DNA of 64,000 bases from Eledone cirrhosa (GCA_964016885.1 OZ024741.1:67828001-67892000); one strand, 5' to 3'; shown: positions 19,478 through 61,279, numbered from the stretch's first letter. The notes: generated from the sequence alone by a model not told the origin. Made by a program: numbers and translations.

Positions 19478-19810
19478 AGTTCATCCTTACACGGTCGATA
19501 AAATAAAATACCAGTAATGAATTGCGGTCGGATTCATCGACTTCCCCTTCCCCCAAAATTGTTGGCCTTGTGCCTAAATCAGAAACTATTCTTTGTTTCG
19601 TGCGGTGGATTGGCAGCATCGATAGAGGGTCGGACGCCATGCTTTGCTGTATAGAGTCACGTCCCTTTACGGCCTGAGTTTAAATCATGCCGAGGTTAAC
19701 TTTGCCTTTCATCCTTACGGCGTCAGTAAAACAAAGTAACAGTCACGCACTGGGGTGGGTTTAATCAACCTCCCCAATTGCTGGCCTTGTGTCTATATAA
19801 GAAGCTATTA
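19478..19810 (+). mobile_element. Partial + full SINE copies in tandem
   Basis: Tail GGCCTTGTGCCTAAATCAGAAACTATT, then head GCGGTGGATTGGCAGCATCG. Confidence 0.85.
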
Positions 19811-20614: not shown

Positions 20615-21102
20615 TCTTGGTAGAGCGTCACACACCATGCTCTGCAGCACAGAGTTATGGCCCTTTAAGTTCCGAGTTCAGATCCCTCCGAGGTTAACTT
20701 TGCCTTACATCCTTACTGGATCGATAAAATAAAGCACCCGTAATATACTGAGGTAATTGCTGACCTTGTGCCAAAAATAGAAACAATTATTACATTCCCT
20801 TGTGTGTCTCTACATATGTTATTGTGGTAGAGATTTGACTACTATTTATTTAAGGTTTCTGGACTACTTATAAATGACTTCCTTGGTTCCATTATTATTT
20901 ATTACGAGGTGAGAGGATTGGCAGTATCGGTAGAGGGTCGGATGCCATGCTTTGAAGCATAGTTACCTCCCTTTATGATCTGAGTTCAAATCCCGCCGAG
21001 GTTAACTTTACCTTTCATCCTTACGGGGTCAATAAAATAAAGTACCAGTAATGCACTGGGTATTTGCTGGCCTTGTGCAAAAAGTAGAAACAATTATTAT
21101 TT
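20615..21102 (+). mobile_element. Two SINE copies (20615-20790 and 20905-21102)
   Basis: Box A/B, central domain and (ATT)n tail. Confidence 0.85.
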
Positions 21103-24160: not shown

Positions 24161-27100
24161 AAGTCAATACTATAATCTAAAAAGACGCGATAATATCGAT
24201 GGTGCTGACGTTGTTTTCGTTTAGTACCACGTCTGTTAGACGTGATTGAGCAGACATATTATCAAACGTGTTCCAACTGTGACCGTCTCATCGTCTCAAA
24301 CATAGATCATTCAGTAGATTATTCATTATAGTTTTCCATGAGTGATTTGGGAGAGATTTTACTGGTATTTCTAGCATATCAAATGACCGCCCAGACACTC
24401 TGCCACTGGTTTGCGATGTAATGAAACCTATAATCATCGATTACCTAATACCAATTCCTCGTTTGATTGATTGATACTCTAGTGGCTCTCTCATCTGTCT
24501 TCGACCAGAACATAATTTAATATCGACGATGATTTCAGAATCAATAATATTTAATCACCATAGCTCTTTATTTATTGTTTAATATAGTTATATTATTAAC
24601 CACAAGCGTTATCATAACCATCATATTATTTAATTAAAACTAGTGAGATAAATATTAAAATCAATTCGAAATTCAAAAAGCTCTGTGGTGTTCTGTTGCT
24701 TCCGTTTAACATTTGACCTTAGCTTCCACTGGAGTTGACTCCTCCTTTCATTAGACCGGAATCAATGACTTCTTCTTTTTATAAATTAGCCAAAAAGAAT
24801 GATGGACAAAATATAAGATCTTTTTCAGTTTCTTGCCGACAGATAATAACGATGTGGCTTGTACATTCTAAATATATTCAGATTAATATTTGCAGAAAAA
24901 ACGTGACCAGTCAGATAATAGGAGTGACTGGGTCGAATGCTTGCAAAAGAATGATCTATATATAATCATATATACCATAATAATCTACATATAATCACCT
25001 AACGTGATTGGGTTAAACCGAGTGGCATATTACACGTAATACGTCTATATACCTAAAGTACCGCGATTTATTGATTCGATGAAACATTACCGCCACTATA
25101 GACCTTCATATAAGGAGGCAACGAATTGGCAGAATCATTAAAACATCGGATAGAATGCATTGTGGTATTCGTTCCGGCGCTCTGCACTCTAACACCGAGG
25201 TAATATTTGCCATTCATCATTTTGGGGTCGATAACAAAAGTACCAGTCTGCTACTGTAGTCGGTTCTACCTCTATATCTCTCTCTCACTTCGTGTATCAT
25301 TCTATCTAAAAGAAATCAGCTGTTTTCAGATATTAAGAAGGGACGGGCCCCACCGGGTATAAAGTGCCTTATAATTTAATGAAGCGCCTTATAATTCAAT
25401 CAAGCAATAGGGGACCATACATACACTCCAATAATAGAAATCTTCATTTAAATGAACGTATTATAAGGATTACAGTATTTAGGTTGTGTTAACAAACTAA
25501 AGCACTTCACTTTTAAAAAAGAATAACTGATGTTGTCTCAGCTTTTATTTCGCTATGACCACAGATTTGGATTGTATAATCAGCTACACACTTCTAAAAT
25601 AATGCTAACAAATATATCGACAGATTTTATCTCGGATATTGTTTATAATCAAAAAACCGTTATCAACGGCTCATTATGCGTTAAGCAAGTGACTCAAGCC
25701 ACTGAACTTGCTACGATATCGCTGGAAACAATTAAGGATTTAATGGAAATGCTTTATGTTTTATGCAATCGATCCAAGCTATATATTCACACGAAAGAAA
25801 CTATATCATGCTGTTTACTCATCTATTACCTAGCAATATACAAACATCGTCCCGAGAGATATTATGTAAAGGTAATTGGTGAAAAGAAAACAAAAGGGGA
25901 AAAGATTTATATTTCGAAATGTTTCGTTTCAATTCCGGTTAATTTATGTATATTTTTAATTTTCCTTTTTTTTTTCTTTTTCGTTTAACTAAGGTTGTTA
26001 GATTAGACTGACGGTTAGATGCGTTCTTCCGTGTAAATATTTATTAGATAGTATTTGTGGCGGCACCGTATACATTATTGCTACTGACATTTTGATGGGT
26101 TGTTTATCATATAAATTGTTGCTATACATTGTTAGCTGAACATTGTTAGCCCATCTTATTGCCATTCAAAATTGTGTAAGCAGGATAACAAGGAATGGAA
26201 TGGAATATAGTTATTTTAATGATCGCGTCTCTCGGCGGATAAATAATTCCCAAGGATATCTAAGTATTATATTATCTGCCAGCACATCAGTGTAGCATCT
26301 ACACATAGTAATAGTAATCTCGTTGTTTCTGATTAGAAGCGTATTCATTCATTGTTAAAAAATTAGCTGTGTGGCATAAAATATTAATTAGAGAAAACAG
26401 CTGTTTACTTTCAAAAAGAAACCGAGAGAAAACTAGCATAATTGGTTTGTCCGGATTCTAACTACAGTAAAGATACAAGCAAACAGATCTTATGCTATGG
26501 TTTTCATTAAATGCTTGTTTGGTATGATAAGCATGAAGACCAATAATGCATTACACTAACTCATTTATATATTAGTACATATGCGTTATTGGCTGCTTTT
26601 ACATGAAAATAGATTCTTTTCTTTCTGGGTGGAGGAACCGAATGTTGTTGTCAAATATACAAGAATATATTGGGTTGAGAGAAAAGATACAACCTGACTA
26701 AATATTTTGAAATCAGACATGTCAACTCTCCTCATCCGACAGGGAGATCGCCAACCCACTTTGGGGTAGGTGAGAGATGTCTTTTCTTGTGAAAATGGGT
26801 ATAGATTTCATTACGTAAAATCTCCACATTTTCCCTCATTTCGCCCCGTTTTGGGGCACTTTTTTTCATGGTACTTCCAGTTTGGATGTTAAGAGGTTAG
26901 CAGGGCTGTGATACCTCTTTCTTTTTTTCCCCTATATTTTGTGTTCAATTCACACTAAGGTCTGTATTATCTTTCAATATATCAGAGATCGATAAACTAG
27001 GAAGAGGTTATGTACTAGTCTAATACTACTCAGTAAAATCACTACTTATGAATAAATAAGTCATATTGTTAATGTTGTAAATCGTTTTAAATAACCGATC

Positions 27101-27724
27101 TTCATTCGAGCTTTTGTTAGCCTAATAAAGAAATCAATTTCATGGTGTGGTTTATCAATATACATAATATGACTTTTTCACAGATTCACGATATCAAATA
27201 CTTAATGTGTAGTGAGACACTAGGTTGTATGCCTCAGGAAAAAATTGATGGTTTATATTATTGGCACCAAATATTAGTCCTCACCAAAACCCTACATATT
27301 TCACTAAGTGCGTGTAAGAAAATTTACAATATACTAGAAATAGATACCAAATATCAAATCCCAATTTGAAAGGGTTGACAATATTGCTTGGCTAACTAGA
27401 AATAACAGCCAATTCTCAAATCCTAAATTCTCAATTTGAAAGAAATACAGAGTTGACAATAGTTTAAGTAAAAAGTAAAAGTGTAATTATTTTTTCAGAT
27501 ATATCAAGACCTTTTGTGAAAAAGTATTGACAGTTAAATCTTTTCAGTGTATTGCTTTATCTTCTCAATTTCGAACTTAGTTAAATGCAGAGCAAATTAA
27601 ATTTAATGGGATTTCACCTGAATCCATAACATAAATGTATTCAGGGTCAACAAAATGTTTACTCACATAGATATAGAATAGTTTCATTTTTTTCGTACGA
27701 CTAAAGAAATTAGAGTAAAAGATG

Positions 27725-30463: not shown

Positions 30464-30654
30464 TAATTGTTTCTACTTTTGGCACAAGGCCAGCAATTAC
30501 CCAGTGTATTACTCGTACTTTATTTTATCGACCCCGTAAGGATGAAAGGCAAAGTTAACCTCGGCGGGATTTGAACTCAGAATGGAAAGGGCCGTAACTC
30601 TTTGCGTCAAAGCATTGTGTCCGACCCTCTACCGATACTGCCAATCCACCGCCT
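30464..30654 (-). mobile_element. Full-length SINE (reference copy, short variant)
   Basis: Minus strand AGGCGGTGGATTGGCAGTATCGG...GAGTTCAAATCCCGCC...GGCCTTGTGCCAAAAGTAGAAACAATTAT. Confidence 0.92.
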
Positions 30655-35466: not shown

Positions 35467-36001
35467 TACCGATGATGTTGATCTTTTCTTCTTTTAGGGT
35501 TATAGCTACTGTCACTCAGAGAGTGGGATTGGCTCAGTGCACAGTCTTTCCTCCCTTTAAAAAAATCTTCAAGCACAGGCATTGCACGATAGAATTAATT
35601 AATAATTATTAATAATGTTATATCGTGCAATGACCATACTCGATGACGAGGGGGCAGCCATCATCATATATATATCGTCGGGCAGGATATCCGATCGCGC
35701 GGTTAAACCACTGGGAGTGAAGGACCCCTAGCCTTTGTCAGGGCATTCTTCTAGGAGAAGGCAACTCAGGAAACTGGGATAACTCCAATATAAAACCTGC
35801 GGCTCAGTAGCTACCGATGATGTTGAACTTTTCTTCTTTTCGGGTTATAGCTACTGTCGCTCAGAGAGTGGGATTGGCTCAGTGCACAGTCTTTCCTCAC
35901 TTTAAAAATATCTTCACGCACAGGTATTGCGCGATAGAATTAATTAATAATTATTAACAATGTTATATTGTGCAATGGCCATACTTGATAACGAGGGGGA
36001 A

Positions 36002-36010
<9 letters not shown>
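35467..36010 (+). mobile_element. Short non-autonomous element in (TA)n with a ~200-bp partial tandem duplication; head resembles RTE-type 5' UTRs
   Basis: 35467-35670 repeats 35811-36010; CTAGGAGAAGGCAACTC...AAACC motif at about 35750-35797. Confidence 0.55.
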
Positions 36011-36051
<41 letters not shown>

Positions 36052-36193
36052 CACAAATATGGTAAAGGTATCCAAGCGTAAGAGCTCTCAGTCCATAGGA
36101 CGAGTTGAGTATCTATATATATAAACGAGTAAATCAGACAAAGTTGGAATTCCTTTTATTAATATAATCTGCTATACAAAATCATACACACCC

Positions 36194-36231
<38 letters not shown>

Positions 36232-36232
36232 T

Positions 36233-36490
36233 CTTTTACTCTTTTACCTGTTCCAGCCATCCGTCTGAGGCCATGCTGGGGCACTGCCGTTGTTGCAGCC
36301 ACTTTTGATGTAAGAGGGAGTTCGTTGCTGCTGCCCTTAGGTTACCTTCGTACTGTGCTGTGGACTCATCTGGGATCCTGGATGTGTGAAGATGTTTCTT
36401 GAAAACATCCATGTCCACACCATGCAGATGTCTCAAATTTCTTGCCAGCTTGTTGAAGAGCTGAGGGCCTTTGAACCCCAGGCTGTTGCA
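36233..36490 (-). pseudogene. CR1-like LINE 3' end fragment
   Basis: Minus strand GPQLFNKLARNLRHLHGVDMDVFKKHL..SRIPDE...RAAATNSL, then a short 3' tail ending in (GTAAAAGA) repeats. Confidence 0.65.
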
Positions 36491-36505
36491 ATATCAGCTC
36501 TTTAT

Positions 36506-37224: not shown

Positions 37225-37392
37225 GTAATAATAATAAATTTGAAGACTAAAATCCAAAGAGGGCTCGATAAGGATAAATATATATCAAATACATAAGAAC
37301 CGTAGAGCAAATAATTATTAAAATAACAGATTAAAGTTTAAGCAAAGAATCGGGGTCTTTAACATTTTTCTCTCTCTCTCTATATATATATA

Positions 37393-37615
37393 TAGGAACG
37401 AGTAGGACCCCGACGGCTGAGCTCAAGCCGTTTCGACGGCTAATTCTGGACGCTTAGTGTAGTAGAGTGGGTAATAGGAACGAGTAGGACCCCGACGACT
37501 GAGCCCAAGCCGTTACGACGGCTAATTCTGGACGCCCTAATTCTCTACTACCCTAAGTATTGAGTACTTTAGTGCGTTATGGTCCACCTGGTTCCTTACC
37601 ACATTTCCTTCGTTA
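37393..37615. mobile_element. Scrambled copy of the family-F hammerhead element (two minus-strand half ribozymes + plus-strand tail)
   Basis: Shares GGACCCCGACGGCTGAGCTCAAGCCGTTTCGACGGCTA and the AAGTATTGAGTACTTT...CCTTCGTTAT tail with 52305-52537 and 55705-56067. Confidence 0.8.
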
Positions 37616-37713
37616 TATATATATATATATATAAGTATACATAGACATGAATATACATTTGTTTATATGTTTATGCATGTGTATAGATATACATATATGT
37701 CTATGTGTGTGTG

Positions 37714-37782
<69 letters not shown>

Positions 37783-37896
37783 TAATAAAAGGAATTCCAA
37801 CTTTGTCTGATTTACTCGTTTTATTTACAATCCTTTAAAATTATAATGATATTATAATGAAATAGTATGGTAGAATATTAAATGTTAAGTGTTAAT

Positions 37897-37935
37897 TGAA
37901 CAAGTACTTTCATGCTTTCGCAATCTTCAGGTTCA
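37897..37935 (-). ncRNA. Minimal hammerhead ribozyme (family E) within element 37778-37975
   Basis: Reverse complement of 56782-56820. Confidence 0.8.
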
Positions 37936-38339
37936 TATTCTGTGGTGACAGTCAAGTTTGCAATTTTCAAATTGCATATGTGTGTGTGTGCGAGTGACGT
38001 CACAATAGATATTGTTTAATCCATAATAGTACATATGGTGCCAGTCATTCTGTACAAACTCTCGAAGCTTCTGTTATCCAACTGATTAATAATTAATTCA
38101 GTGAGAGTATTTCGTTTTTCATATAATTTTATATCCATTTATTTACTCGGTTTTCGAGGCTTGATTGTTGCTTCTATAAGTGCGAAGAATCGTTATGGAG
38201 TGGAGGTGTCTGAAGTGGAGGTCGATGATGGTGATGGTGGTGGTGGTGGTGGTGGTGATGGTGGTGGTGATGATGGTGATGATGATTACGACGAAAATAT
38301 TAATGTTCATCAAGATAATAACAGTGAATATCGAGTCTT

Positions 38340-39857: not shown

Positions 39858-40451
39858 TATAGTTGTTACGCTCCAACTCTTTATTTATCTAAGCAGGATA
39901 TCATAACATTTTATTATCACCTTCAAAGAGTGGTTTTCACTGTTGCATTCATGCCTAAGCACATCATAATGGGAGATTTCAATGCTAGAGATGGAAATAT
40001 ATATATATTAGCTATAGCGAAACTGAAATAATTTAACAAAGAGAATATGAATAACTTGACATATTATTAATGGAAAAAATGCCAGATATATTCTTTAAGT
40101 GCAGACGACATTTAAATTAAGCAGCAGATAGAAATGCAATCACAGAGAAACATGTTGCAGAACAAATACAAATACGTTAAGATCTCACATATGTAACATG
40201 ACAGATGCACACTAATGAGAATTGAATAGTCTATATCATCGAATTGTCTATTCATCATATTGTAATTAGCTCCCTTTATTTTTTTTTTCCTTACACCAGA
40301 GAGGGAATTTTCCTCTAGTAATTGCATTTTTAATCGACGTCAATCAAATATTTTAAATCATTGTATTACATATGCAGCAAACAATTGCCAGGGGTTCACT
40401 TGCTAGAATATATCGTTTCTTTTAAACTGTATGAAAAAGTTGAAATTCAAA

Positions 40452-41372
40452 TATTGGTTTCTGATTTAGGCACATGGCCAACAATTATAGGGAAGTGGAA
40501 AGTTGATGAAATCGACCCCAGTGCATTGCTGGTACTTTATCGACCCGTAAAATGTGATTTGAACTCAAAACGTAAAGATGCGTAACTGGATGAATAGTGG
40601 GGGGAAATATTGTTTCCTGACTTAGGCACAAAGACAAAACTTTTTGGGGAGATTAAATCGAATCCATTGCATTACTGGTACTTTCTGAAGCTAACCTCAG
40701 TGCGATTTGAACTCAGAACATAAAGGGAAGTAACTGGGTGAATAGTGGGAATAATATTGGTTTCTGATTTAGGCACAATGCCAAACATTTTGCGGTAGGG
40801 AAATGTCTATTAAATCAACCTCAGTGCATTACTGGTACTTTATTTTATCGAAGGTGAAAGGCAAAGCTAACCTTGGCAGGATTTGAACTCAGAACGTAAA
40901 GGGATGTAACTTGATGAATAGTAGGAATAAATGCTGCAGTGCATTTCTCCAAAGCTTTAACACTTTTGATAAATCACGGCCCTTCTAATTCTTTCTAAAA
41001 TTAGCATAAGGCCATCAATTTTGGGGGAGGAGAAAGTAGATTATATTGACCCTAGTACTTTACTGGTACTTTATTTGATGAGCCTCTAAAGGATGAAAGA
41101 CAACTTACCTTCAGCAGGATTTGAACTCATAACGTAAATTGTGGGAATAACGATTGCGAATCCTTTGTCCTACGCTCTGTGTATTCTGCCAATTCATAAT
41201 AATAATAATTGTTTCTACTTTACGCGCAAGACCAGCAATTACCCAGTGCATTACTGGTAATAATAATAATAATTGTTTCTACTTTTGGCACAAAGCCAGC
41301 AATTATCCTAGTGCATTACTGGTACTTTATTTTATCGACCCCGTACGAATGAAAGGCAAAGTTAACCTTGGC
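40452..41372 (-). mobile_element. Cluster of about 6 tandem SINE copies and fragments
   Basis: Repeated GGTTTCTGATTTAGGCAC...TTACTGGTACTTT...GATTTGAACTCA units. Confidence 0.85.
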
Positions 41373-41387
41373 GTGAGTTATAATAAG

Positions 41388-41657
41388 GATTTCATTTATT
41401 GGCCACAAGGGCCTGCATGTAGAGGACTATACAAAGACACTGAGCAGATGCCGCTGTGCATTGCAGCGATCCAGCTTCTGAAGACGGGGCCGAAGCCAGC
41501 TGCCTACAGTTCGACCCTATCGAATGCTTTCGATTGATCTAAATTGATCAGAGCCCCACCGAAGCCAGGTTTACACCCACCCTCTCTATGATGTATCGCA
41601 TGAGGTGGGGGTTGTCGTGTATGGATTTGGTCGGGATTGCGCAAGCTTGCGCCTCCC
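41388..41657 (-). mobile_element. Internally deleted Tx1/L1 fragment (RT piece joined to the 3' terminus)
   Basis: 41388-41440 matches the 3' end at 47974-48030; 41440-41657 matches RT sequence at about 49740-49980; AAT repeats on both sides. Confidence 0.85.
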
Positions 41658-41936: not shown

Positions 41937-41981
<45 letters not shown>

Positions 41982-42275
41982 GATTTCTTTATTAACCACA
42001 AGGGTTTACATAAAGTAGACATTAAGGACAGTGCAGGACAATGCAGGACGGTACAAATGGGCATTTCTGCGTGTAAAAAACAAAAACAGAGGATGTAACA
42101 AAAATAACAATGAAAATAACAATGAAAAATTCCCCAATAGGGGGGAGACTTCGGAGGGACATTTGTGGAGAAAGCCCAGTAAAAAGCCACAATGACCCTG
42201 ACCACCAAGGCAAGTGCACTCTCCCAGTTTTCCACCTTTAATTTACAGATATATACTCAGAGTAGGCCCATTCAC

Positions 42276-43090
42276 TCAGGCCATTCTTGCTTCTCTCACC
42301 CATCTTTCAACAAAATGCTGGGAAGAGAGCACTTCCCTCTCTACTCTGATTTTCCTTTTCAAATGAAATTTGAAAAAGTCAATCAGAGCATCACCAAAGA
42401 GGTAAGTGCTCGTCTTCAGCCCTTTCAAACGTGTCCACCATACTATCTCTTTCGCCATGGCCACCAGACAGATAAAAACTGCCTGCCCTTCCCGGCTAAA
42501 GGAGGAGGGCGGGGCAATCCTCACGATGGACTCAGATGATAGCCGGATCCGTCCTAAACGCGACAGCAGGTGTTCGACATAAACCCACAAGTCAGCAATT
42601 TTCGGACACTGGACGAGTGCGTGCAGGACGGTTTCGTCGCCCTGCGCGCATCTCGGACATGCCCGGCTGACGGCACCTCCATGCCTGTAGAGTTTATCCC
42701 GAACTGGCAAGGCTCCTCGGTAGCACTGCCAGGCCAGAGATTTCTGGAAGTTGTCCATAGGCCCCGGCCCGAAAGTTCTTCCGAAGAGATTGGCTAGTTG
42801 ATTTTCGTCGACGCCTAGAGTTTCGCCAAGTACGTCGTCGCTCTTACCCTCCACTAATCCTCTATAGAACGCCGAGGTGGAGTTTCCACCGATCACATTG
42901 CCCGATTGGTCGAGGGCTGTGAGCGCCTGAAGACATTCCAGTCTCCAGGCGCTCCCTCTCGGTCTTCGCTTGACCCAGGACTGCAGCTCCGTCAAGGAAA
43001 CGAGCTGGGGAAATACGCGCCTAGCAAACGGCGACCACACCTGATCACCGTCGAGGAAGAGGTGGAGATGTCGTAGCCTGAGCGCGTTTC
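42276..43090 (-). pseudogene. ORF2 C-terminal part with zinc finger, separated by a single frameshift near 43089
   Basis: CPRCAQGDETVLHALVQCP; the paralogue reads LMMRRHALRLRHL continuously across this point. Confidence 0.88.
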
Positions 43091-45663
43091 CTGCGCATCA
43101 TCAGCCACGGCATGCCCAGCCCTCCACGTAGCGGGTGTTGACAACAGATGGACCGCCTGACCATCGGAGCACGTCCCTTCCACAAAAAGCGAAAGAACAA
43201 ACGCTCCAGTGCAGTCAGGCGAGGCTTAGGACAAGGTACGACGGTCAGGCGGTAGCAGATGACAGACGCGATGTACGCGTTAGCCACCTCCGCTCGACCT
43301 TTCAGGGATAGCTTCGTCTCCGCCCATTTCTGGGTGAGAGAAGCCACCCTGCTCGTCACCTCGTCCCAGTTTTTGTCCGTCTGGAGGTCCGGACCGAACC
43401 AGACCCCTAGCAATTTAACCGGTCCGTCCGTCCAGCGTCCGACGACGCTGTTGGACGGCATGGACCTGCCTCTCCAGGTGCCGAGCTGCAGGCCCACTGA
43501 CTTTTCCTGGTTGATCATTGCTCCTGTCACCGCTTCGTATTCTCTTAGTGTAGTGCCGATCGCCTCGATGTGTTTGGCGTTCGACACCACTACGGTGATA
43601 TCGTCCGCATATGCTGACACGGATCTTCCGCATCCTAGTTCGCGCGGGACTCCCCTCAACGTCTCCAGTTTGTGCAGTAATGGCTCGAGAGTCAATACGT
43701 ACAAGAGGGACGAGAGGGGACATCCTTGGCGGACCGAGCGCATGATGTTGAACGGTTCCGACAGGTGACCGTTCACTCTCACCACAGAGCAAATGTCGCT
43801 GTGCATGGCAGCGATCCAGCCTCTGAAGACGGGCCCAAAGCCAGCCGCCCTCAGGACTGCCGCTAGGTAACGATGGTCGACCCTATCGAAAGCTTTCGAC
43901 TGATCTAAATTGATCAAGGACCCACCCGTGCCAGGTTCCTTAGCTACCCTCTCTATGATGTATCGCATGAGGTGGAGGTTGTCGTGGATGGATCTGTCGG
44001 GAATGGCGCATGTCTGCGCCTCTCCCACCAGACCACCAACGACAAGCGCCAACCTCTTTGCTAGCACCTTGGCCAAAATCTTGAACTCTGTGTTTAGCAG
44101 AGCTATGGGCCGGAAATTTTCTATGTTATCCCCCTTGTTCGGATCCTTTCTCAGCAGTGCCACCGCTCCTCGGCTCACAGAACTGGGAATTCTCCCGTTC
44201 TGTTGCCAGTTGCAGTAGACGTCCGCCAAGAGGCCTCCGAACAAGTCTGGCATCTGTACGTAAAGTTCATAGGGCAGACCATCCAAACCAGGCGATTTAC
44301 CCCTTGTGCAGCCAGTCATTGCCTCCCTTACTTCAGCGGCTGTTATCGGCTTTTCGCAACACTTCGCCTCAGTGGCCGAGAGCCGCGGCAGTCCGTCGAG
44401 GTAGACACTAAAGTCCATCCCTCTACCCGGCCCACCGCTGCCCCCGAACAGCTGAGCGAAGTGTCGCTGAAAAGCTTCACACATTTGCCCGGGATCGAGT
44501 AGCATGCACTCGTCGTGGTCCACCAAAGACCGGATCGTGGCTTTGTTGCCACGACGCGCCTCCGCCACTCGGGCCCATTGAACGGATTTCGTCCCCTCGT
44601 GTCTGAGAGCACGCACCCTTGCTCTGACAACGCAGCCTTCGTCCTTTGCATTGAAGAATTGGTCAAGGGCCAATTTCGCCGCAAGCACGTCGGTCGCAAT
44701 GCCTTTGCTAAGCGCCTCGTCTAATTTTCTAACTAGTTCTCCCTCTGCTCTATTTTTCTCTATTGCTAAAGCCTTACTAAACCTAATCGATTCTATTCTA
44801 ATCGCTCTTTTCAGAGCAAACCAGCACTTGTTGTTGACGATGGCCCCCGTCAACGCCCGCTTAACTAGTTCGCTAATCCGGTCGCTGTAGGCCTTGCGCG
44901 CTGGTAAGGACGCGTTTAGCTTCCAGTAGCCGGGTCCTCGTCTATGAAGCCTATCTAAGTCAAGCACACAGATCACGAATTTGTGGTCCGTGTAGCTGAC
45001 TATCTTGAATTGTGGACAGCCTATGCTAGACCTATCTATTTCCCTACAAAATACTCTATCTAGATATGATCTGGATGACCCTATGCGATTTGTCCAAGTC
45101 CACATTGGCACATTCGGGAAACCCAATCGGTACCTGTCAGACAGTTCAAAACGCCTGAGCAGGTTGGTGAGGCTCTTGCACCCTCCACCCCTATCCGCTA
45201 ATCCCACACAGTCCCAGCGTGCATCTAAGATCCCGTTCCAGTCGCCCACTAACACTAAAGAGCGGGACGTTCCAAGAAAGGTCTCCAGACGCCGGAAGAA
45301 ATCAGGCCGCCCTGCTCCTGTCGGGGCATAGACGGCCACTAGCCTGAAAGCTTGCCCGTCTCCACTGGTCACGTCCAGCACCACCAGCTTACCCTCTGGG
45401 TCCAGGAAGATGGCCCGTATGGCGAGATCCAAACCTCTCCGAAAAAGCACAGCAACTCCTCCACCCGATCCAGGACGGCTGGGAGATGCGTACACATCGT
45501 AGCCGCCGAAGATCGGTGCGAAGGCCCGTGCTTCGGAGATTCTGGTCTCGCTGATGGCCACTACATCTATGTTTAGTGACCTGAGGTCGTTGAGCAGGTG
45601 ACCCTGCTTCCATGACGACCCCAAGCCACGCGCATTTATGCTGCCTATTCTGAGTGAGGTCAT
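43045..45663 (-). CDS. LINE ORF2: APE endonuclease + reverse transcriptase (Tx1/L1 clade)
   Basis: SINARGL, SETR, VYAP, GDWN, YLDRV, TDHK (APE); GPGYWKLN, KSPGLDGLP, FRPIALLN, DQSKAFDRV, VRQGCPLS, YADD (RT). Confidence 0.95.
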   Translation of the reverse strand: MTSLRIGSINARGLGSSWKQGHLLNDLRSLNIDVVAISETRISEARAFAPIFGGYDVYASPSRPGSGGGVAVLFRRGLDLAIRAIFLDPEGKLVVLDVTSGDGQAFRLVAVYAPTGAGRPDFFRRLETFLGTSRSLVLVGDWNGILDARWDCVGLADRGGGCKSLTNLLRRFELSDRYRLGFPNVPMWTWTNRIGSSRSYLDRVFCREIDRSSIGCPQFKIVSYTDHKFVICVLDLDRLHRRGPGYWKLNASLPARKAYSDRISELVKRALTGAIVNNKCWFALKRAIRIESIRFSKALAIEKNRAEGELVRKLDEALSKGIATDVLAAKLALDQFFNAKDEGCVVRARVRALRHEGTKSVQWARVAEARRGNKATIRSLVDHDECMLLDPGQMCEAFQRHFAQLFGGSGGPGRGMDFSVYLDGLPRLSATEAKCCEKPITAAEVREAMTGCTRGKSPGLDGLPYELYVQMPDLFGGLLADVYCNWQQNGRIPSSVSRGAVALLRKDPNKGDNIENFRPIALLNTEFKILAKVLAKRLALVVGGLVGEAQTCAIPDRSIHDNLHLMRYIIERVAKEPGTGGSLINLDQSKAFDRVDHRYLAAVLRAAGFGPVFRGWIAAMHSDICSVVRVNGHLSEPFNIMRSVRQGCPLSSLLYVLTLEPLLHKLETLRGVPRELGCGRSVSAYADDITVVVSNAKHIEAIGTTLREYEAVTGAMINQEKSVGLQLGTWRGRSMPSNSVVGRWTDGPVKLLGVWFGPDLQTDKNWDEVTSRVASLTQKWAETKLSLKGRAEVANAYIASVICYRLTVVPCPKPRLTALERLFFRFLWKGRAPMVRRSICCQHPLRGGLGMPWLMMRRKRAQATTSPPLPRR

Positions 45664-46026
45664 GTTTAAAATAGAGTGGAAAAGATGGGAAAGACCACTT
45701 ACGTACTTTTCGTAGAGGAGGGATGGTTTTTACATCCCTTTTCACTTGATCGTCTGGTGAAGAGACCGTTGAAGCGTCCCTTCCGCTGGTCGTCGGCTCT
45801 TCTAAGAGAATGTCTGAATATACTCTTCGATTGATGGTTCCTCCTAGGTCCCTGAAATCACCAACTGCGTTGGGGAATTTCGTTTTAATATTTGTGTATT
45901 GTTTCTGTGCTATTTTTAGCAGTCTTATGTTAGTTGGCGTTTTGATTGGTGCTGGTATTATGTAGTCCTGTTGTGAAATGTCTGTGTGTTCAATTATGTA
46001 AGTCATTAGTTTCTTGTTGTGTGTAT

Positions 46027-47772
46027 TTATTGCCGTGCATTTGTTTTTCTGGGGGTGGGGTGTGGTTCTGCTATTTTCTTGTGTGTTTGCGATGTTGGTG
46101 CTTGTGGTGGTGGTGTTGAAGGTGTTGTTGGCGGTGGGGTTGTCGCCGGTGGTGATGGTGGTGCTAGTGTGGGTGGTGATGGTGTTGGTGGTGTTGCTGC
46201 TGTGGGTCTCTTTGCAGTAGACTTTACCCTTTTCTTATTTCTTTCCTCCCTTTTCAAAGGCGACGATGCGCTGCTTCTGCGTTTGTGCCTTCTTACGACC
46301 TTTTGCCATCCCTCTCCCACCTCACACTCCATGTCTGATTCTGTGAGGTCGGGGAGGGGTACCAGCTCCACTCTTTCACTTGTTGTTGTTGGTGATGTTT
46401 GCACTGGAGTCTCTGTTGCAGCTGCATTTGGTATTGCTGTTGTTGTTGTTAATATTTCCACTGCTGCTGCTGTTTTTGATTTCCGTGGAGTGGGTATGGG
46501 TGCCACGGACCTATCGTTCCTGGTTGCCGCTTGTCCTGTTGCTGGTAGCCGTGGAGCCGGATTCGGAAGGAGGGGGGTTTTCTCCTTCCTCAGGGTCTTC
46601 TCGTTGCAGAAGGCCCTGAGGTGAGTCTTCGATCCACAGCGAAAGCATTTCGGGCGTTTGCCCTCAACACTTATGGGCAGTTGAGTGCCGTTATCGAAGT
46701 CTATCACATCCGGGATAGCTTCGATGCACTCCTGGTTGGTTTGGATTAGCATCTCAATGGAGGTGCCTACCCAATCTTCTCTTACTTTTTTCTGTACTTG
46801 CAGTACAGTTGTTTTGTCCTCGATTCCGACGAGGACAGACGCGGCCAGCCAAGAAGGGGCCATTCCGGGGGGGACGTGGGTCAGTTTGACCCTCACAATT
46901 TTTTGCCCGCAGTAGGAGGGCACCAACACCATTTCCTCGCTCCTTAGGGTCACTACTGATTGGGCCTTTGCCTCCTGGGGTGTGGCAAAAAGTACGTCTA
47001 CGGTGGCATATTTTTTGCCTCGGGTGATGTGCGTTTTCCGCTGCCACACAGACCCCAAGGCTTTTTGTATTTGGGCCTCTGTGGCTCTTTCCACCCTACG
47101 TGATTTTGTACTTACTGTACGGTACGTGACCGTACAGTGCTCTTGGGTTTCGAAAAATTTTTCCGCTGCCTTGCAGATTGCTCGGTGTCCATTCTTTGTC
47201 ACCATCTTCTTCGCTTCCTCTAATTCCTCATTTGTTATGAGGATTGTTTCCAAGTTTTTCGCAATACCTGCAAATGAGATTGGTTTTTCTCTGCTGCTGC
47301 TGTTGTTGTTGTCGTCAGAGCTGCTGGTACTTTTGTTGTTGCTGCAGGTACTACGACTACTGCCTCCGCCGCTGTTGCTGTGGTTGTTGTTGGTGTTGCT
47401 GCTGCTAATGCTGTTGTTGTTTATGCTGCTGGTGATGCTGTTGCGGCTGCTACTGTTGTTTTCATTGTCACTGTTGCTGTTGTTATTACGGCTGCTACTG
47501 CTATTATTCCTGACGTCAGACGAATGAACTGGGTTTTCGTATTTCCCGCACACCTGTTTCGTCGCTGTCGTCGTCGTCGTGGAGAAACCTTGCACGCTTT
47601 GCACGAGACTTTTCTTTTCTTTCGTCACTTGCGAAAGAGAAGGGAGGGAGAGAGATACATCTCTGCTGTAGTGATGATTGAGGAAGAAGAAGACGGAATG
47701 AGTGGGAGTGACGTATGAAATTTCTTTTTCGTAGCCATGTTGTTTTTTGTTTAAAATGAATATTGGGTACAA
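46027..47772 (-). CDS. LINE ORF1 gag-like protein with zinc knuckle (start uncertain)
   Basis: CFRCGSKTHLRAFC knuckle preceded by an RRM-like region (VKLTHVPPG); the track start is TTG and the first in-frame ATG is at about 47203. Confidence 0.8.
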   Translation of the reverse strand: MYPIFILNKKQHGYEKEISYVTPTHSVFFFLNHHYSRDVSLSLPSLSQVTKEKKSLVQSVQGFSTTTTTATKQVCGKYENPVHSSDVRNNSSSSRNNNSNSDNENNSSSRNSITSSINNNSISSSNTNNNHSNSGGGSSRSTCSNNKSTSSSDDNNNSSSREKPISFAGIAKNLETILITNEELEEAKKMVTKNGHRAICKAAEKFFETQEHCTVTYRTVSTKSRRVERATEAQIQKALGSVWQRKTHITRGKKYATVDVLFATPQEAKAQSVVTLRSEEMVLVPSYCGQKIVRVKLTHVPPGMAPSWLAASVLVGIEDKTTVLQVQKKVREDWVGTSIEMLIQTNQECIEAIPDVIDFDNGTQLPISVEGKRPKCFRCGSKTHLRAFCNEKTLRKEKTPLLPNPAPRLPATGQAATRNDRSVAPIPTPRKSKTAAAVEILTTTTAIPNAAATETPVQTSPTTTSERVELVPLPDLTESDMECEVGEGWQKVVRRHKRRSSASSPLKREERNKKRVKSTAKRPTAATPPTPSPPTLAPPSPPATTPPPTTPSTPPPQAPTSQTHKKIAEPHPTPRKTNARQ

Positions 47773-47973
47773 AACCCCAATAACTGGTTATTTCACCCCG
47801 AAGTGCCAAATAACGGACAGAAAGACCCCTCTCACGAGGAGGAGGGTGTCTTTATCAACAATTTGGTTCAAGTTTTAAACAATTTACAATTGTTTTAACG
47901 GTTAAAAATTACTATACCTTACAGAGCCGAGCCTCCGTCAACCATGGCATTCAATAATAATAATAATAATAAT

Positions 47974-50900
47974 GATTTCATTTATTAGCCACAAGGGCCG
48001 ACATGTAGGGGACAATACAAAGACAGGGACAGTGGGGGTTTACAATAAGGTCGAGTAAAAGTGCACAATGGCAAGACTAATTTAACAATGAAAATATAAA
48101 AATATAAAATAAACTATGCATAAATATGACAAAATAAATTCCCCGATAGGGGGTGGACGACCCTGGGGTGATTCGGGTACGCCACCAATCATGAACCACC
48201 CTGCGCTTCTAGGGCAGCCAGGGAGAGCATCCCTCTCCTCAAGTTAGCCAACCTATAGGCGCATGGTCAGAGTAGGCCCATTCACACGAGCCATTCTCGC
48301 CACATTCACGCACCTTTTAGCAAATGTACTGGGGGGCAGCACTTCTCTCTCCACCCTCACCTTCCTTTCCAGGTGAAACTTGAAGAAGTTGATGAAGGAT
48401 TGGCCGAAGAGAAAAGTGTCTGTCTTTAGTCCTTTCAGCCTGGTCCACCATATAATCTCTTTCGCAACTGCCATCAGACAGAGGAATATTTCCTGCTCTT
48501 CCTAACCTAAGGAAGGCGGTGGATCGATCTTCACTATGGACTCGGTCGATAGCCGGATTCGTTCCACACGCGACAGTAGCTGTTCGACATAACACCACAA
48601 GTCAGTAATGCACGGACATTGGACAAGTGCGTGCAGAACGGTTTCGTCGTTCTGTGCGCATCTTGGGCAGGTCCGTCTGACAGCACTTCCGTGCCTGTAG
48701 AGTTCATCCCGAACCCGCAGTGCCCCCCGGTAGCACTGCCAAGCGAGGGATTTCTGGAAATTGTCCATCGTCCCCGGCTCAAAATTCCTCCGGTACAGAC
48801 TGGTCAGTTCGACTTCGTCGAGGCCCAAATCTTCTCCAAGTGCGTCATCGCACTTGCCCACCACTAATCCTCTATAGAACTCGAGAGTGGAAGTTCCACT
48901 GATCGCATTGCCCGCTTGGTAGAGGGCAGTGGGTGCCTGGCAACATTCCAGGTCCCAGTCACCCAGTCTCGGTCTCTTCTTGACCCAGGACAGCAGCTCA
49001 GTCAAAGAAATGAGCTGCGGAAAGGCCCATCTGATAAACAGCGACCACACCTGTTCACCGTTGAGGCAGAATATCTGGAGATGTCGCAGCCTCAACGCAT
49101 GTCTGCGCATCATTAGCCACGGCATGCCTAGCCCTCCACGAGAATTTGAAGAGGAGCCGTTCCAACTTGACGAGGCGCGGACGGGAACAAGGCACGACGG
49201 TCAGGCGGTAGTAGATGACGGACGCGATGAACGCATTCGCCACCTCCGCGCGACCTTTCAGTGATAGCTTCCTCCCAGCCCATTTTTGGGTGAGACTGGC
49301 TACTCTGCTCGTTACCTCGTCCCAATTCTTTTCCACCTGGAGGTCTGGTCCGAACCAAACCCCGAGCAACTTTACCGGTCCGTCCGTCCAGCGCCCCACG
49401 ACGCTGTTGGACGGCATGGGCTTGCCTCTCCAGGTTCCGAGTGCAAGCCCACCGACTTTTCCGGGTTAAGTTTGGCTCCTGTCAACCTTTCATATTCCTT
49501 CAATAAGGTGCCGACCACCTCGATTTCTGAGGTGTTCGACACCATCACGGTGATGTCGTCCGCATTAGCCGACACCGCCTTTCTACGTCCCGGTTCGAGC
49601 GGGATGCCCTGCAACAGCTCCATCTTTCGCAATAAAGGCTCGAGAGTCAATACGTACAGAAGGGAAGAGAGAGGGCACCCTTGACGGACCGATCGGGAGA
49701 GCCGAAATGGTTCCGACAGGTGGCCATTAACCTTGACCACTGAGCGTGTGCCGCTGTGCATTGCAACAATCCAGCTTCTAAAGACAGGGCCGAAGCCAGC
49801 TGCTTTGAGGACAAACTCCAAATACCGATGGTCGACCCTATCGAATGCTTTGGATTGATCTAAATTGATCAGTGCCCCACCGAAGCCAGGTTTACACCCT
49901 ACCCTCTCTATGATGTATCGCATGAGGTGGAGATTGTCGTGTATGCACTTGGCTGGGATTGCGCAAGTTTGCGCCTCCCCAACCAAATCCTCGACGACAA
50001 GCGCCAATCTCTTTGCTAACACCTTGGCCAAAATCTTAAACTCTGTGTTGAGCAGAGTTATGGGCCTGAAGTTGTCTAATGTATCCCTCTTGTTCTCGTC
50101 TTTCCTTATCAGCGTCACCACTCCCCTGCTCACAGAACTGGGAATACTCCCATTCTGCTGCCAGTTGCAGTAGAGTGCTTCGAGGAGTTCAGAGAACAAG
50201 TCTGGCATATTTACGTAAAGCTCGTAGGGCAGGCCATCCAAACCGGGTGACTTGCGCCTCATGCAGCCGACAAGGGCGTCCTGCATTTTGGCTGAAGTAA
50301 TCGGCCTTTCGCGGCGCTCAGCGTCGACCGTCAAGATGCGCGGCAAGCCGTCAAGGTAGGGACGACTGAAATCCGCTATTCTCTCTGACTCACCACTTTC
50401 CCTGAACAACCGAGCAAAGTGCTGGCGAAAGGCCTCACACATCCGCTTGGAATCGCTTATCTCGTGTCCGTCTCGGTCCGCCAAAGACCGAATTGTGGTT
50501 TTATTACCACGCTGCGCCTCCGCCACGCGGGCCCATCAAACAGCTTTAGTTCCCTCGTTTCTCAGCGCACGCGCCTTAGCTCTGACAATGCAACCTTCGT
50601 GTTTGGCATTGAAGAAATGGTCTAATGCCATTCTCGCCGCTAGCACGTCAGTTGCGATGCCACTACAAATAGCCTCGTCTAACTTATCTACCAGCTCCCC
50701 CTCCTTTCTATTTTTCTCTAACGGTAGTTCTTTGCTGAACTCTATCGAAGTTACTTTAATCTCTCTTTTGAGAGCCACCCACCATCTATTGTTGATGATC
50801 CCCCTGTCAACTTTTGCTTAACTAAATTGTTGACTCGGTCCCTGTAAGCCTTACGTGCCGGAAATGACATGTTCAGCTTCCAGTAACCCGGTCCTAACCT

Positions 50901-51422
50901 ACGCGTTTTATTTAGGTCCACCGTACAGATCACAAATTTGTGATCTGAATAGACGACCGTTTTAAAAAGTGCACAGCCCACACTATTTCTATATATTTTC
51001 CTAATGAATATTCTGTCTATATACGATCTAGATAACCCCATTCGGTTAGCCCAGGTCCACACTGGCACATTGGGGAAATCTAGTCGATACCTGTCAGACA
51101 GTTGGAACTGGCTTTGTAGGTGCTTGAGGCTTTTGCACCCCCCGCTCCTATCGGCTACTCCCACACAATCCCAGCGTGCGTCTAAGATGCCATTCCAGTC
51201 CCCCTCTAACAGTAAAGGGCGAGACGTACCCATATAGGTCTCCAGGCGCCTAAAGAAGTCCGGTCGTCCGGCCCCTGTAGGGGCGTAGACGGCCAACAGT
51301 CTAAAAGCACCACCTTCGCTACTGCTCACATCCAAGACCACCAACTTACCGTCCGGGTCCCGGAAGATCGACCTTACCTCGAGATCCAGTCCTTTCCTAA
51401 ACAGCACTGCCACCCCACCCCC
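47974..51422 (-). mobile_element. 5'-truncated, disrupted Tx1/L1 element (second subfamily), ORF2 only, in (AAT)n
   Basis: ORF pieces 50751-51420, 50536-50778, 49372-50526, 49055-49417, 48502-49125 and 48253-48474 are colinear with 42276-45663; several stops/frameshifts; YADD reads NADD; (AAT)n at both ends. Confidence 0.93.
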
Positions 51423-51430
51423 TAATAATA

Positions 51431-51507
<77 letters not shown>

Positions 51508-52032: not shown

Positions 52033-52255
52033 TATGTATGTAAAAGGTAAACAGAAATAACAAATAACAAAGCAAACGGCAAACTACATGGAAGAACTAT
52101 ATTATATCTATATATATATATGTATAGATAGATAGATAGATAATGAATAGATAGCTAGATAAAGAGATAATAGATAGATATAGATACACACACATATATA
52201 TATGCACCCAGACTTATACACATACACACACACATTACACACACACACACACATG

Positions 52256-52304
<49 letters not shown>

Positions 52305-52306
<2 letters not shown>

Positions 52307-52537
52307 CGAAGGAGATGTGGTAAGGAACCAGATGGACCATAATGCACCAAAGTACTCAATACTTAGGGTAGTAGAGTGGGTAATAGGAATAAGTAGGACC
52401 CCGACGGCTGAGCTCAAGCCGTTCCGACGGCTAATTCTGGACTAAATGAAAATGTTTAGCCTGGTAAATGAATGGCCGAACTTCTCAGGGGGTAATTCCA
52501 TATATGGTAAAAGTGATTGTCACAAGGATTTGTCATG
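52305..52537 (-). mobile_element. Family-F hammerhead element monomer in (TA)n; ribozyme at 52398-52493 mutated (C3-A8 mismatch, GGAA)
   Basis: Colinear with 55850-56067 in reverse; (TA)n on both sides. Confidence 0.85.
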
Positions 52538-55625: not shown

Positions 55626-55704
<79 letters not shown>

Positions 55705-55708
<4 letters not shown>

Positions 55709-56063
55709 AACCAGTAAGACCCCGACAGCTGAGCTCAAGCCGTTTCGACGGCTAATTCTGGACTAAATGAAAATTTATCCTGGTATTTAAATAGCCGATC
55801 TTCTCAAGGGGTAATTCCATATATGGTCAAAGTGATTGTCAAAAATTTTTCACAATCACTTTGACCATATATGGAATTACCCCTTGAGAAGATCGGCTAT
55901 TTAAATACCAGGATAAATTTTCATTTAGTCCAGAATTAGCCGTCGAAACGGCTTGAGCTCAGCTGTCGGGGTCTTACTGGTTCCTATTACCCACTCTACT
56001 ACCTCAAGTATTGAGTACTTTGGTGCGTTATGGTCCACCTGGTTCCTTACCACATTTCCTTCG

Positions 56064-56436: not shown

Positions 56437-56496
<60 letters not shown>

Positions 56497-56530
56497 TACA
56501 CGGGTGTGTATGATTGTGTATAGAAGATTA

Positions 56531-56938
56531 TATTAATAAAAGGAATTCCAACTTTGTCTGATTTACTCGTTTTATTTACAATCCTTTACAATTTATAATG
56601 GTATTAGAATGAAATAGTATGGTAGAATATTAATTATTAAGTGTTAATTGAACAAGTACTTTCATGCTTTCGCAATCTTCAGGTTCACATTCTGTGGTGA
56701 CAGTCAAGTTTGCAATTTTCAACAAAATTTACCCATCTCATTACAGTTGAAAATTGCAAACTTGACTGTCACCACAGAATATGAACCTGAAGATTGCGAA
56801 AGCATGAAAGTACTTGTTCAATTAACACTTAACATTTAATATTCTACCATACTATTTCATTCTAATACCATTATAAATTGTAAAGGATTGTAAATAAAAC
56901 GAGTAAATCAGACAAAGTTTGAATCCCTTTTATTAATA
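56531..56938. repeat. 193-bp inverted repeat with 22-nt spacer (family-E fold-back dimer) between (TA)n tracts
   Basis: 56531-56723 versus 56746-56938, a few mismatches. Confidence 0.92.
56782..56820 (+). ncRNA. Minimal hammerhead ribozyme (family E); mirror copy at 56649-56687 on the minus strand
   Basis: TGAAC-CTGAAGA-T TGC GAAA GCA T-GAAA-GTAC-TT|GTTCA; GNRA loop II; palindromic AGTACT stem III. Confidence 0.85.
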
Positions 56939-57020
56939 TATATATATATATATATACATATATATAGGGGGGATGTTTATGTATATGTATATGTATGGAT
57001 ATATATATCATATACATACA

Positions 57021-59505: not shown

Positions 59506-59693
59506 TAATAATTGTTTCTACTTTTGGCACAAGGCCATCAATTACCCAGTGCATTACTGGTACTTTATTTTATCGACCCCGTAAGGATGAAAGGCAAAGT
59601 GAACCTCGGCGGGATTTGAACTCAGACCGTAAAGGGACGTAACTATGCTGGAAAGCATAGCGTCCGACTCTCTACCGATACTGCCAATCCACC
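59506..59693 (-). mobile_element. Full-length SINE
   Basis: Matches the 30464-30654 copy. Confidence 0.92.
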
Positions 59694-61279
59694 AGAGATA
59701 GAATAATAATATTTGAAAATGCACCTCTTTTTTATATACACATGTAATATTAATTAACAAAAAAGACAAAAATTCACACCAAAAGAGGAAGATATAAACA
59801 AATTCCCTGAGGGTAGGGTTATGTTATAAGGAGTTTGCAGAAATAGTCATTACTCTTTATATAGTTTTTGTACTTAACCGGTTTAACCGCTTTTGAAAAC
59901 CTACTTATATCTTTGAAAACTGTAATTCATTTACATTATATTTTTATGGTAGGAATAAATTTTCTTTCACACATGTGCCATAAATTTTACATCTATATAT
60001 AAAAAATCATTAGATGCATCTTGAAACTTCTTTTTACTATTTTCCCTATATAACACGCTTTGTACAGCAACCCTTAATCTTATAACCCTATGTGCGTGTG
60101 GTGGGGACACATATTATTGCCTCGCGATAATAATATCGTTAACGGAACTATTTTTCTCTTTTCTTTGTAAATACATTTCTGCACACTTGATGAAGGTTTG
60201 AAATGGGGAAGAAGAGGGTTTGTTATTTAGTACATCACTAAAGCGACTGGAAGTTCTCGAGGTGGGACAGTGGTAGTTGTTTTTGTGTAACACTATTTAA
60301 ACAGATCTGTACCATTGTATTTCCACATATGACCATCATGTTATTAATGCGTATATGGTGCTACATTACTTTAATGCGTCCTCACATCATTAACAACCTT
60401 ATGTTCTATTTCTAGCAGATCGAGTGACTGGACACAGGCTCTCCCTAAATGATTGTATTAATAATTGCAATATTAATCTTTTTTTTTTAATTTCCATAAA
60501 ATTGACTTCTGGTGCAGTCGTTACATATATATAAATTGTGTTTTTTTTAATTTAGACCATAGTTTACATTGATTCCATGGAAACTTATGATCAGTTAGGA
60601 CTTTCAATAGCTGTGTGGTGATGAAAATACACAAAGCAGAATCGTTAAATCACCGTCAAAATTGTTTGCGGTATTTTCTTTTTACACTCTACATTCCGAA
60701 TTCAAATCCTGCCGAGATGAAATTTGCCTTGTATTTGTGGGGCAGTTTCGTCAGTGTATGGTACTTAATGAATGGTAGTTTGAAAGTCCACATTGACCTA
60801 AGTGAAATTTGAACTCAGAAGGTAAAGGTCGTGTCATTTTGTCCAACACTATAGTGATCCTATCAATCCTTCTCCCGGTAAGTTTAGTCTCGCTTCGTGA
60901 TAATATATTGTTGGCAAAAGCTCAAAAGATCATTTGCCTTGTATTCTACTGAGGTCAATAAAATAAAGTACTAACCAAGTACTAATATGATTTAATCCTC
61001 CAAAATTGCTGGCCATGTGCCTAAATTAGAAACCATTGTTAAAAGAATACACACAGTTATGACGTACCGGTTTCAATCTTATTTCGTGCCATATTTAGAA
61101 CGTATCTTTTACCATATCATGTGAGTGAAATTTGGTAGGAACAAACTGTTGAAGCACATGGGATGGCCTGTACATGTAAATTAAAGTACCGGCCTTGATA
61201 GACTCTGTATAAAGCTGATAAGGGAAGAGAATTATGTTAAAGTACAACTTTATGAAATACTCCACTGAGGATTCACCGA

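Follow-up and report, generated by a model that had tools for sequence, protein, structure and literature searches.

In Ohshima (2013; PMC3747384), 58 short interspersed elements (SINEs) are listed as carrying the 3′ tail of a partner long interspersed element (LINE). Three of these partners belong to the L1 clade, all in plants or algae and none in an animal; no Tx1 partner and no octopus SINE is listed there, and in Table 1 of that paper no octopus SINE is paired with a LINE. In its maize (ZmSINE2/ZmSINE3 with LINE1-1_ZM) and Chlamydomonas (SINEX-3_CR with L1-1_CR) pairs, the LINE and the SINE share a 3′ stem-loop whose loop is conserved and whose stem varies with compensatory changes, within a common stretch of ~45–80 nt that ends in poly(A) or poly(T). 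For the crocodilian SINEU, a target-specific Tx1 LINE, Tx1-Mar, was put forward as the driver from insertion targets alone (Kojima 2015; PMC4494074): the two share an insertion target and form tandem insertions that sandwich a duplication, and SINEU, as described there, has small nuclear RNA heads, poly(A) tails, a Mariner target and no LINE with the same 3′ end. Here we describe a SINE family and a Tx1-like LINE in a 64,000-nt stretch of Eledone cirrhosa DNA (GCA_964016885.1 OZ024741.1:67828001-67892000; hereafter the window). Because the two end in the same predicted hairpin motif and occupy the same ATT-rich sites, the SINE was likely copied by the LINE enzyme, and we regard it as likely that it is mobilized in trans by this ATT-targeting, Tx1-like LINE through stringent recognition of the 3′ hairpin. 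In contrast to SINEU, the Eledone SINE has a transfer RNA (tRNA)-like head, an (ATT)n target and a structured 3′ motif common to the LINE; unlike the plant and algal pairs, the system is from an animal, its LINE is probably of the Tx1 clade, its loop is another one, the shared stretch is ~25 nt and the target is ATT. The initial annotation of the window, which had paired its dominant SINE with a Tx1 LINE by their 3′ tails, had called an L1/Tx1 partner uncommon, in agreement with the list cited above.

Both elements end in the same succession of features: a stem of 3–4 bp, the loop CUUGU, 10–11 nt (a count that includes the 3′ arm of the stem), GAAA, two nucleotides and ATT. The SINE end reads TGGC-CTTGT-GCCA or -GCCT, with 10 nt to GAAA. 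The end of LINE copy A (AACC-CTTGT-GGTT, 10 nt, GAAA, TC, ATT) aligns with it without gaps when anchored on the loop, and the ends of copy B (GGCC-CTTGT-GGCT) and fragment C (GGCC-CTTGT-GGCC) have 11 nt. This ungapped register applied to 28 of 29 SINE 3′ ends and to all three LINE 3′ ends of the window, which lie on the minus strand. The strings that the initial annotation had quoted are in place, both for the SINE (19,564, 61,008 and a third that occurs, for instance, at 59,537-59,513) and for the LINE (41,388 and 47,974, where GAAATC ends and (ATT)7 follows at 47,973-47,953); the third LINE end, that of copy A at 41,982 (minus strand), had been overlooked. Since this end has a different stem with the same loop and spacing, the gapped register GGCC(C)TTGTG.CYAA that had been read from the other ends is wrong, although the resemblance itself persists. 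The stem variants TGGC/GCCA, GGCC/GGCC and AACC/GGTT are compensatory. In a hand-chosen set of three LINE and ten SINE ends, three of the four stem pairs were changed on both sides, and 88.5% of the cells were paired, as compared with 29–56% in slid controls. RNAalifold predicted this terminal helix only, and the hairpin lay within the minimum free energy structure of all eight tails folded, LINE A and B included. The conserved 3′ stem-loop thus shows compensatory changes, the variation lying between families. UnaSINE/UnaL2, Sauria SINE/Bov-B and HE1/HER1 likewise combine a tRNA-head SINE with a 3′ stem-loop and a short terminal repeat, but their partners are L2, RTE or CR1 elements and not of the L1 group (PMC3747384).

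As an assessment of the resemblance with the ATT run excluded, we scored the window with a matrix of SINE tails (28 of the 29 SINE ends, one 3′-truncated copy having been dropped). The ends of B, A and C ranked 3, 9 and 24 among 114,768 unmasked positions with the 24-nt core, 3, 33 and 45 among 114,752 with extra 5′ flank, and 46, 1161 and 331 among 114,794 with the hairpin alone. A descriptor (at least 3 stem pairs, CTTGT, 10–11 nt, GAAA), composed after the ends were known, had three matches outside the SINEs, which were the three LINE ends; 0.07 matches per window were expected from 300 local shuffles, 19 of which had any match. In an end-anchored comparison with the 11 best SINEs, the three LINE ends scored 15.8 (LINE A), 18.7 and 22.5, and 0 of 400 shuffles reached the score of any of them; in this test, the similarity claimed earlier exceeded that of shuffled tails. 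In eight other regions of the window, none of the 3,716 rival positions scored above 15.3. Of 107 sites that precede an ATTATT run, B and A ranked first and third, the second being a decayed SINE-like end. A covariance model built from the three LINE ends had 13 non-training matches at an expectation value (E) of up to 10, five of which were SINE tails, which make up 0.7% of positions and are not independent copies.

Some of these tests cut the other way. The five SINE matches of the LINE-trained model (E 3.9–6.4) are not significant individually, and the reciprocal model, trained on 24 SINE ends, found none of the three LINE ends among its 40 matches at E up to 10. On sequence alone, a site within open reading frame 2 (ORF2) of LINE A scored higher (17.5) than the end of this copy, which stood barely above the best rival position. 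The tail resemblance is real but thin. The alternative that two short AT-rich ends beside microsatellites resemble each other by chance, and cluster through the local abundance of ATT, would draw on the ~25-nt length, on the choice of the descriptor after the data had been seen and on the negative SINE-trained model; the shuffle and rank tests above, made without ATT, and the strand specificity of the insertion bias described below make such a coincidence very improbable.

The insertion sites provide a second, largely independent link between the SINE and the LINE. In the clearest SINE copies, the target-site duplication begins immediately after GAAA-NN. A duplication score of at least 12 was obtained for 9 of 28 own flank pairs but for only 11 of 756 mismatched pairs. 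Three of these nine high-scoring duplications, which count against the signature, are tandem-repeat artefacts; the set of nine duplications considered below consists of the six true high-scoring ones and three lower-scoring ones added by hand. They are 12–18 bp long and all begin with ATT, seven of them having C before it and one a T run upstream. ATTAT occurred within 30 nt 5′ of 16 of 28 SINE copies, as compared with 6.6% of 17,390 random 30-mers, and near 12 of 20 5′ junctions when eight tandem neighbours were left out; on the opposite strand it was found for 2 of 28 copies. (ATT)n also adjoins all three LINE 5′ junctions, while covering 309 of the 64,000 minus-strand positions (0.5%). The LINE sample is weakened by the close relationship of B and C and by the 5′ run of A, which doubles as the tail of B, so that it amounts to about two independent cases. 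The sequence ATTATTATTAG is present on both sides of the B-A tandem, and the (ATT)7 between the two copies, if the G that follows is included, nearly repeats this 11-bp duplication, an arrangement that fits two insertions at one site.

The same insertion signature is therefore found in SINE and LINE when their insertion sites are compared, as had been proposed earlier. The (ATT)n run itself belongs for the most part to the 3′ copy of the target-site duplication and cannot be counted as a shared tail, as the initial annotation had done. What stands of the partnership it proposed is the terminal hairpin motif and the ATT signature with its 12–18 bp duplications; a tail borrowed by descent does not follow from it, since the similarity ends at the hairpin after ~25 nt and part of the match that had been counted is target DNA. 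With a common stretch of 25 nt, either template switching or convergence could have given the SINE its tail.

According to PMC6007223, target-site duplications of L1-clade elements are 7–18 bp long, whereas most of those of RTE retroposons do not exceed 13 bp and have a T stretch upstream; the nine SINE duplications are within the L1-clade range. These data bear on the possibility that the SINE is in truth driven by a LINE family that is absent from the window and likewise ends in ATT repeats (RTE-BovB, CR1, L2 or Dong-R4), the Tx1-like match reflecting shared tail ancestry or coincidence. Most of the partners known are CR1, L2 or RTE elements (PMC3747384, Table 1), and in Octopus vulgaris RTE, CR1 and Dong-R4 are described as abundant, with recent activity (PMC13282606). 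Where RTE elements insert depends on their 3′ microsatellite (PMC6007223), so the ATT bias alone is not specific, and the comparison spans 64 kb only. Still, six of the nine duplications are 14–18 bp, above the 13 bp or less of animal RTE retroposons (PMC6007223), and the upstream T run, an RTE signature, occurs in one of the nine. No other repeat of the window bears the motif, and SINE pieces are stacked directly on the tail of LINE C. We consider another driver unlikely.

Within the LINE, copies A and B are 76–77% identical, which implies at least two LINE families. In their 3′ untranslated regions (UTRs), 22 of the last 25 columns are identical, as compared with 158 of 301 elsewhere. Several results weigh against recognition of a hairpin at this place. 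A second block of the A/B 3′ UTR is equally conserved (21 of 25 columns) and has no clear SINE counterpart. Folding energies of the tails were no better than those of shuffles (z −1.34 to +0.85), on which ground a long stable hairpin was rejected, and the pair probability exceeded 0.5 in just 12 of 29 SINE tails. No covariation was found within 24 SINE tails (125 of 500 shuffles were as high); the covariation thus rests on three sequence types. There was no similarity upstream of the hairpin (57–287 of 300 shuffles reached the observed score) or between the SINE body and the LINE UTRs (219–763 of 1000 shuffles were as high).

The weak folding and sequence signals would suit a relaxed mode, in which the Tx1-like LINE mobilizes the SINE but recognizes nothing beyond the AUU repeats at its end or the target, the hairpin being incidental or unneeded; SINEU, with no shared tail in the account of PMC4494074, is a precedent. 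We find this improbable, because the loop, the spacing and GAAA have been kept between LINE families of the above divergence, with compensatory stem changes, and the SINE has all three at an equal distance from its end. Our best reading is that the SINE-LINE system behaves like a stringent pair and likely is one.

The second 3′ UTR block (~42,150-42,125 in A and 48,155-48,130 in B, minus strand) consists of a C-run and a G-run that could pair as a hairpin.

ORF2 of LINE A has the Pfam domains Exo_endo_phos, RVT_1 and zf-RVT. In the PDB it matched human L1 ORF2p (E 4e-52 over residues 4–858) better than R2 (1e-20), and its closest named relative, from Argonauta hians, is 58% identical. An apurinic endonuclease, a reverse transcriptase (RT) and a C-terminal zinc motif, with L1 ORF2p as the closest structure, place the element in the L1 group. 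ORF1 had no Transposase_22 match in Pfam; its Atlas look-alikes, at lead level (0.90–0.93), were zf-CCHC, a ZCCHC3-type RBD and RRM_1. Together with the CX2CX4HX4C knuckle in the sequence, these indicate a type I ORF1 (RRM plus CCHC knuckle); in non-mammalian animals, ORF1 of this type has been linked to the Tx1 clade (PMC5203782). The (ATT)n at the 5′ junctions, in about two independent cases, is a target preference of the Tx1 type: Kibi, Koshi and crocodilian microsatellite-targeting Tx1 families also insert and stack in simple repeats, which in their case are (TC)n, (TTC)n, (TTCC)n or (TTTC)n (PMC4494074). No named Tx1 protein was among the homologs retrieved for the LINE. The label Tx1 in the initial annotation accordingly rests on the ORF1 type and the target bias, not on a tree: with an L1-group ORF2 and a Tx1-type ORF1, the LINE is an L1-group element and probably of the Tx1 clade.

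We propose the following sequence of events. RNA polymerase III (Pol III) would transcribe the SINE from the internal A and B boxes that its copies contain. The ORF2 protein of the LINE would then bind the terminal element present in both RNAs, namely the 3–4 bp stem predicted by folding, the CUUGU loop and the GAAA-NN located 10–11 nt on, as in the stringent-recognition model of other pairs. By analogy with target-specific Tx1 families, its endonuclease would nick ATT-rich DNA, usually between C and ATTAT on the sense strand of the element, in line with the target bias observed. Pairing between the nicked strand and the AUU at the end of the RNA would then prime reverse transcription, always equally far from the hairpin. 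Such priming is consistent with the products found in the window: uniform 3′ ends, 12–18 bp duplications starting with ATT, many 5′-truncated copies, and LINEs and SINEs stacked head to tail.

Table 1. Positions of the LINE and SINE features in the window.
Feature	Position	Strand	Description
LINE copy A	41982..47952	-	full length, ~6 kb: 5′ UTR, ORF1, ORF2, 3′ UTR
LINE A ORF1, main frame	46027..47787	-	CX2CX4HX4C knuckle at 46,647-46,606
LINE A ORF2	42276..45663	-	apurinic endonuclease, reverse transcriptase, zf-RVT
LINE A 3′ terminal motif	41982..42012	-	stem AACC/GGTT, loop CTTGT (42,002-41,998), 10 nt, GAAA, TC
(ATT)n run 3′ of LINE A	41937..41981	-	begins with ATTATTATTAG (41,981-41,971)
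LINE copy B	47974..51421	-	directly in front of A; 5′-truncated within the endonuclease; interrupted by several stops and frameshifts
LINE B 3′ terminal motif	47974..48005	-	stem GGCC/GGCT, loop CTTGT (47,995-47,991), 11 nt, GAAA, TC
(ATT)7 between LINE B and A	47953..47973	-	both the B tail and the flank 5′ of A
(ATT)n run at LINE B 5′ junction	51422..51479	-	ends in ATTATTATTAG (51,432-51,422); (TTC)n precedes
LINE fragment C	41388..41657	-	RT piece fused to the terminal ~50 nt; loop 41,409-41,405 within stem GGCC/GGCC
(ATT)n at LINE C 5′ junction	41,686-41,658	-	adjoins fragment C
Exemplar SINE, short type	59513..59694	-	A box 59,686-59,675; B box 59,621-59,612; central region; hairpin 59,537-59,525, GAAACA; 17-bp duplication beginning with ATT
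Exemplar SINE, short type	30468..30652	-	18-bp duplication starts immediately 3′ of GAAACA
SINE copy	20912..21092	+	17-bp duplication beginning with ATT
Long-type SINE, 5′-truncated	19480..19587	+	quoted in the initial annotation
Long-type SINE, 5′-truncated	60933..61034	+	quoted in the initial annotation
Three SINE copies or pieces	40985..41380	-	head to tail, directly behind LINE C, ATT runs between

The LINE features are listed in Table 1. LINE A is nearly intact, its ORF2 being interrupted by a single frameshift near 43,070 and by a stop late in the frame; B is more broken. ORF1 of A (47,738 and 46,234-45,389, minus strand) appears to begin in one frame and to run on in others, owing to frameshifts or sequencing errors at both ends. 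Fragment C has an internal deletion, with a few bases common to both sides of the joint. A search of the window by tblastn with 111 homologs yielded only one extra L1-group piece, a heavily decayed ORF2 fragment at 17,205-16,825 (minus strand) that is 35–39% identical to its closest homolog and has six stops; a SINE-like decayed end lies near it, at 16,286-16,253. No RT or endonuclease match indicating other coding LINE remnants was obtained from Pfam for the 148 longest of 223 candidate frames in the window.

A SINE profile built from ten copies and searched across the 64,000 nt gave 38 matches at E of up to 1, of which 34, on both strands, had E below 1e-5, and 29 of these included the 3′ end. 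The SINE is the commonest short mobile repeat there and covers 8.2% of the window. It is 190–215 nt long, interspersed and non-coding, with 5′-truncated copies and target-site duplications. Among the 16 copies that have the 5′ end, an A box was found in 13 and a B box in 12 (one mismatch allowed), as expected for a SINE2 element with internal Pol III boxes at its 5′ end. The head combines these boxes with an acceptor-like GGCGG/CCGCC pairing; ARAGORN and Rfam scans assigned no tRNA or Rfam family to the SINE, and the T4 terminator is missing from seven of the eight best copies. Short and long types differ just upstream of the tail, and eight short-type copies diverge by 3.8–12.6% from their majority sequence.

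Identity with the MetaSINE (MESC) superfamily, which is defined by a 66-bp Meta domain behind the head, received no support: the SINE is unlike the BivaMeta-SINE1 and BivaMD-SINE1 alignments when compared by eye, and none of five motifs had a match in either of two supplements. A search for the SINE end in bacterial and archaeal genomes gave one match, in an archaeal contig and without a SINE body, which we attribute to chance. At 40,448-40,915 (minus strand), three 5′-truncated SINE units with a common start point are arranged head to tail, which looks like a tandem duplication at the DNA level and not like separate insertions. At 26,933-27,135 (plus strand), a strongly decayed sequence resembles the SINE in its head and central region (E 0.18), with a LINE-A-like end (E 0.76) ~90 nt 3′ of it; this may, on weak evidence, be an older, longer SINE type with a tail nearer to that of the LINE.

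The remainder of the window is microsatellite-rich animal DNA. A broken frame without a Pfam match (10,499-11,146, minus strand) resembles the C-terminal endonuclease region of Penelope-like elements. A 153-aa frame at 25,527-25,988 (plus strand), with a sub-threshold Pfam match to HEAT_ULK4 (E 0.002), may be due to chance or be an exon. Repeats embedded in (TA)n runs are found at 55,700-55,990 and 56,490-56,940, with relatives at 36,123-36,229, 37,381-37,970 and 52,147-52,535; some of them form long inverted pairs. The hairpin motif is in neither the 209-bp direct repeat at 35,467-36,019, which resembles RTE-type sequence, nor the remnant at 36,230-36,500 (minus strand), which resembles a CR1-type LINE end. 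All three labels of these rival regions, CR1-like, RTE-like and Penelope-like, are unconfirmed impressions of ours.

Octopus SINEs derived from tRNA, OR1 and OR2, are said to have been described by Ohshima and Okada in 1994 (cited in PMC4824008 and PMC4758252), reportedly together with one named OK; the Eledone SINE may be one of them. In the O. vulgaris genome, according to PMC13282606, SINEs make up ~11.6%, 893 of 900 recently active SINE families are unclassified, and 13 of 80 L1-Tx1 families are recently active; a joint expansion of SINEs and LINEs is reported there at distance 0.065, and we found no partner named. Full-text searches yielded no tail-sharing SINE/Tx1 pair and no partner of an octopus SINE, although subscription papers, supplements, Repbase, Dfam or SINEBase may hold one. 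We tentatively suggest, with less confidence than in the mobilization proposed for the window, that the SINE dominating octopod genomes may owe its mobility to a Tx1 lineage that targets (ATT)n and stringently recognizes a minimal hairpin with a CUUGU loop. The two would then form the first SINE/Tx1 pair with a shared tail, and the LINE would be the first animal partner of the stringent type from the L1 group. With its 25 nt and its naturally occurring compensatory variants, the motif lends itself to a test by a few point mutants.

If true, a Tx1-like partner would explain where the SINE lands and why it clusters with ATT microsatellites, and much of the repeat DNA of octopuses would owe its position to one microsatellite-seeking endonuclease. 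Strict 3′ recognition would then persist in the animal L1/Tx1 group, which bears on a question left open in PMC3747384, namely whether the ancestor of the L1 group was strict in its RNA recognition, the poly(A) recognition of mammals being a later relaxation.

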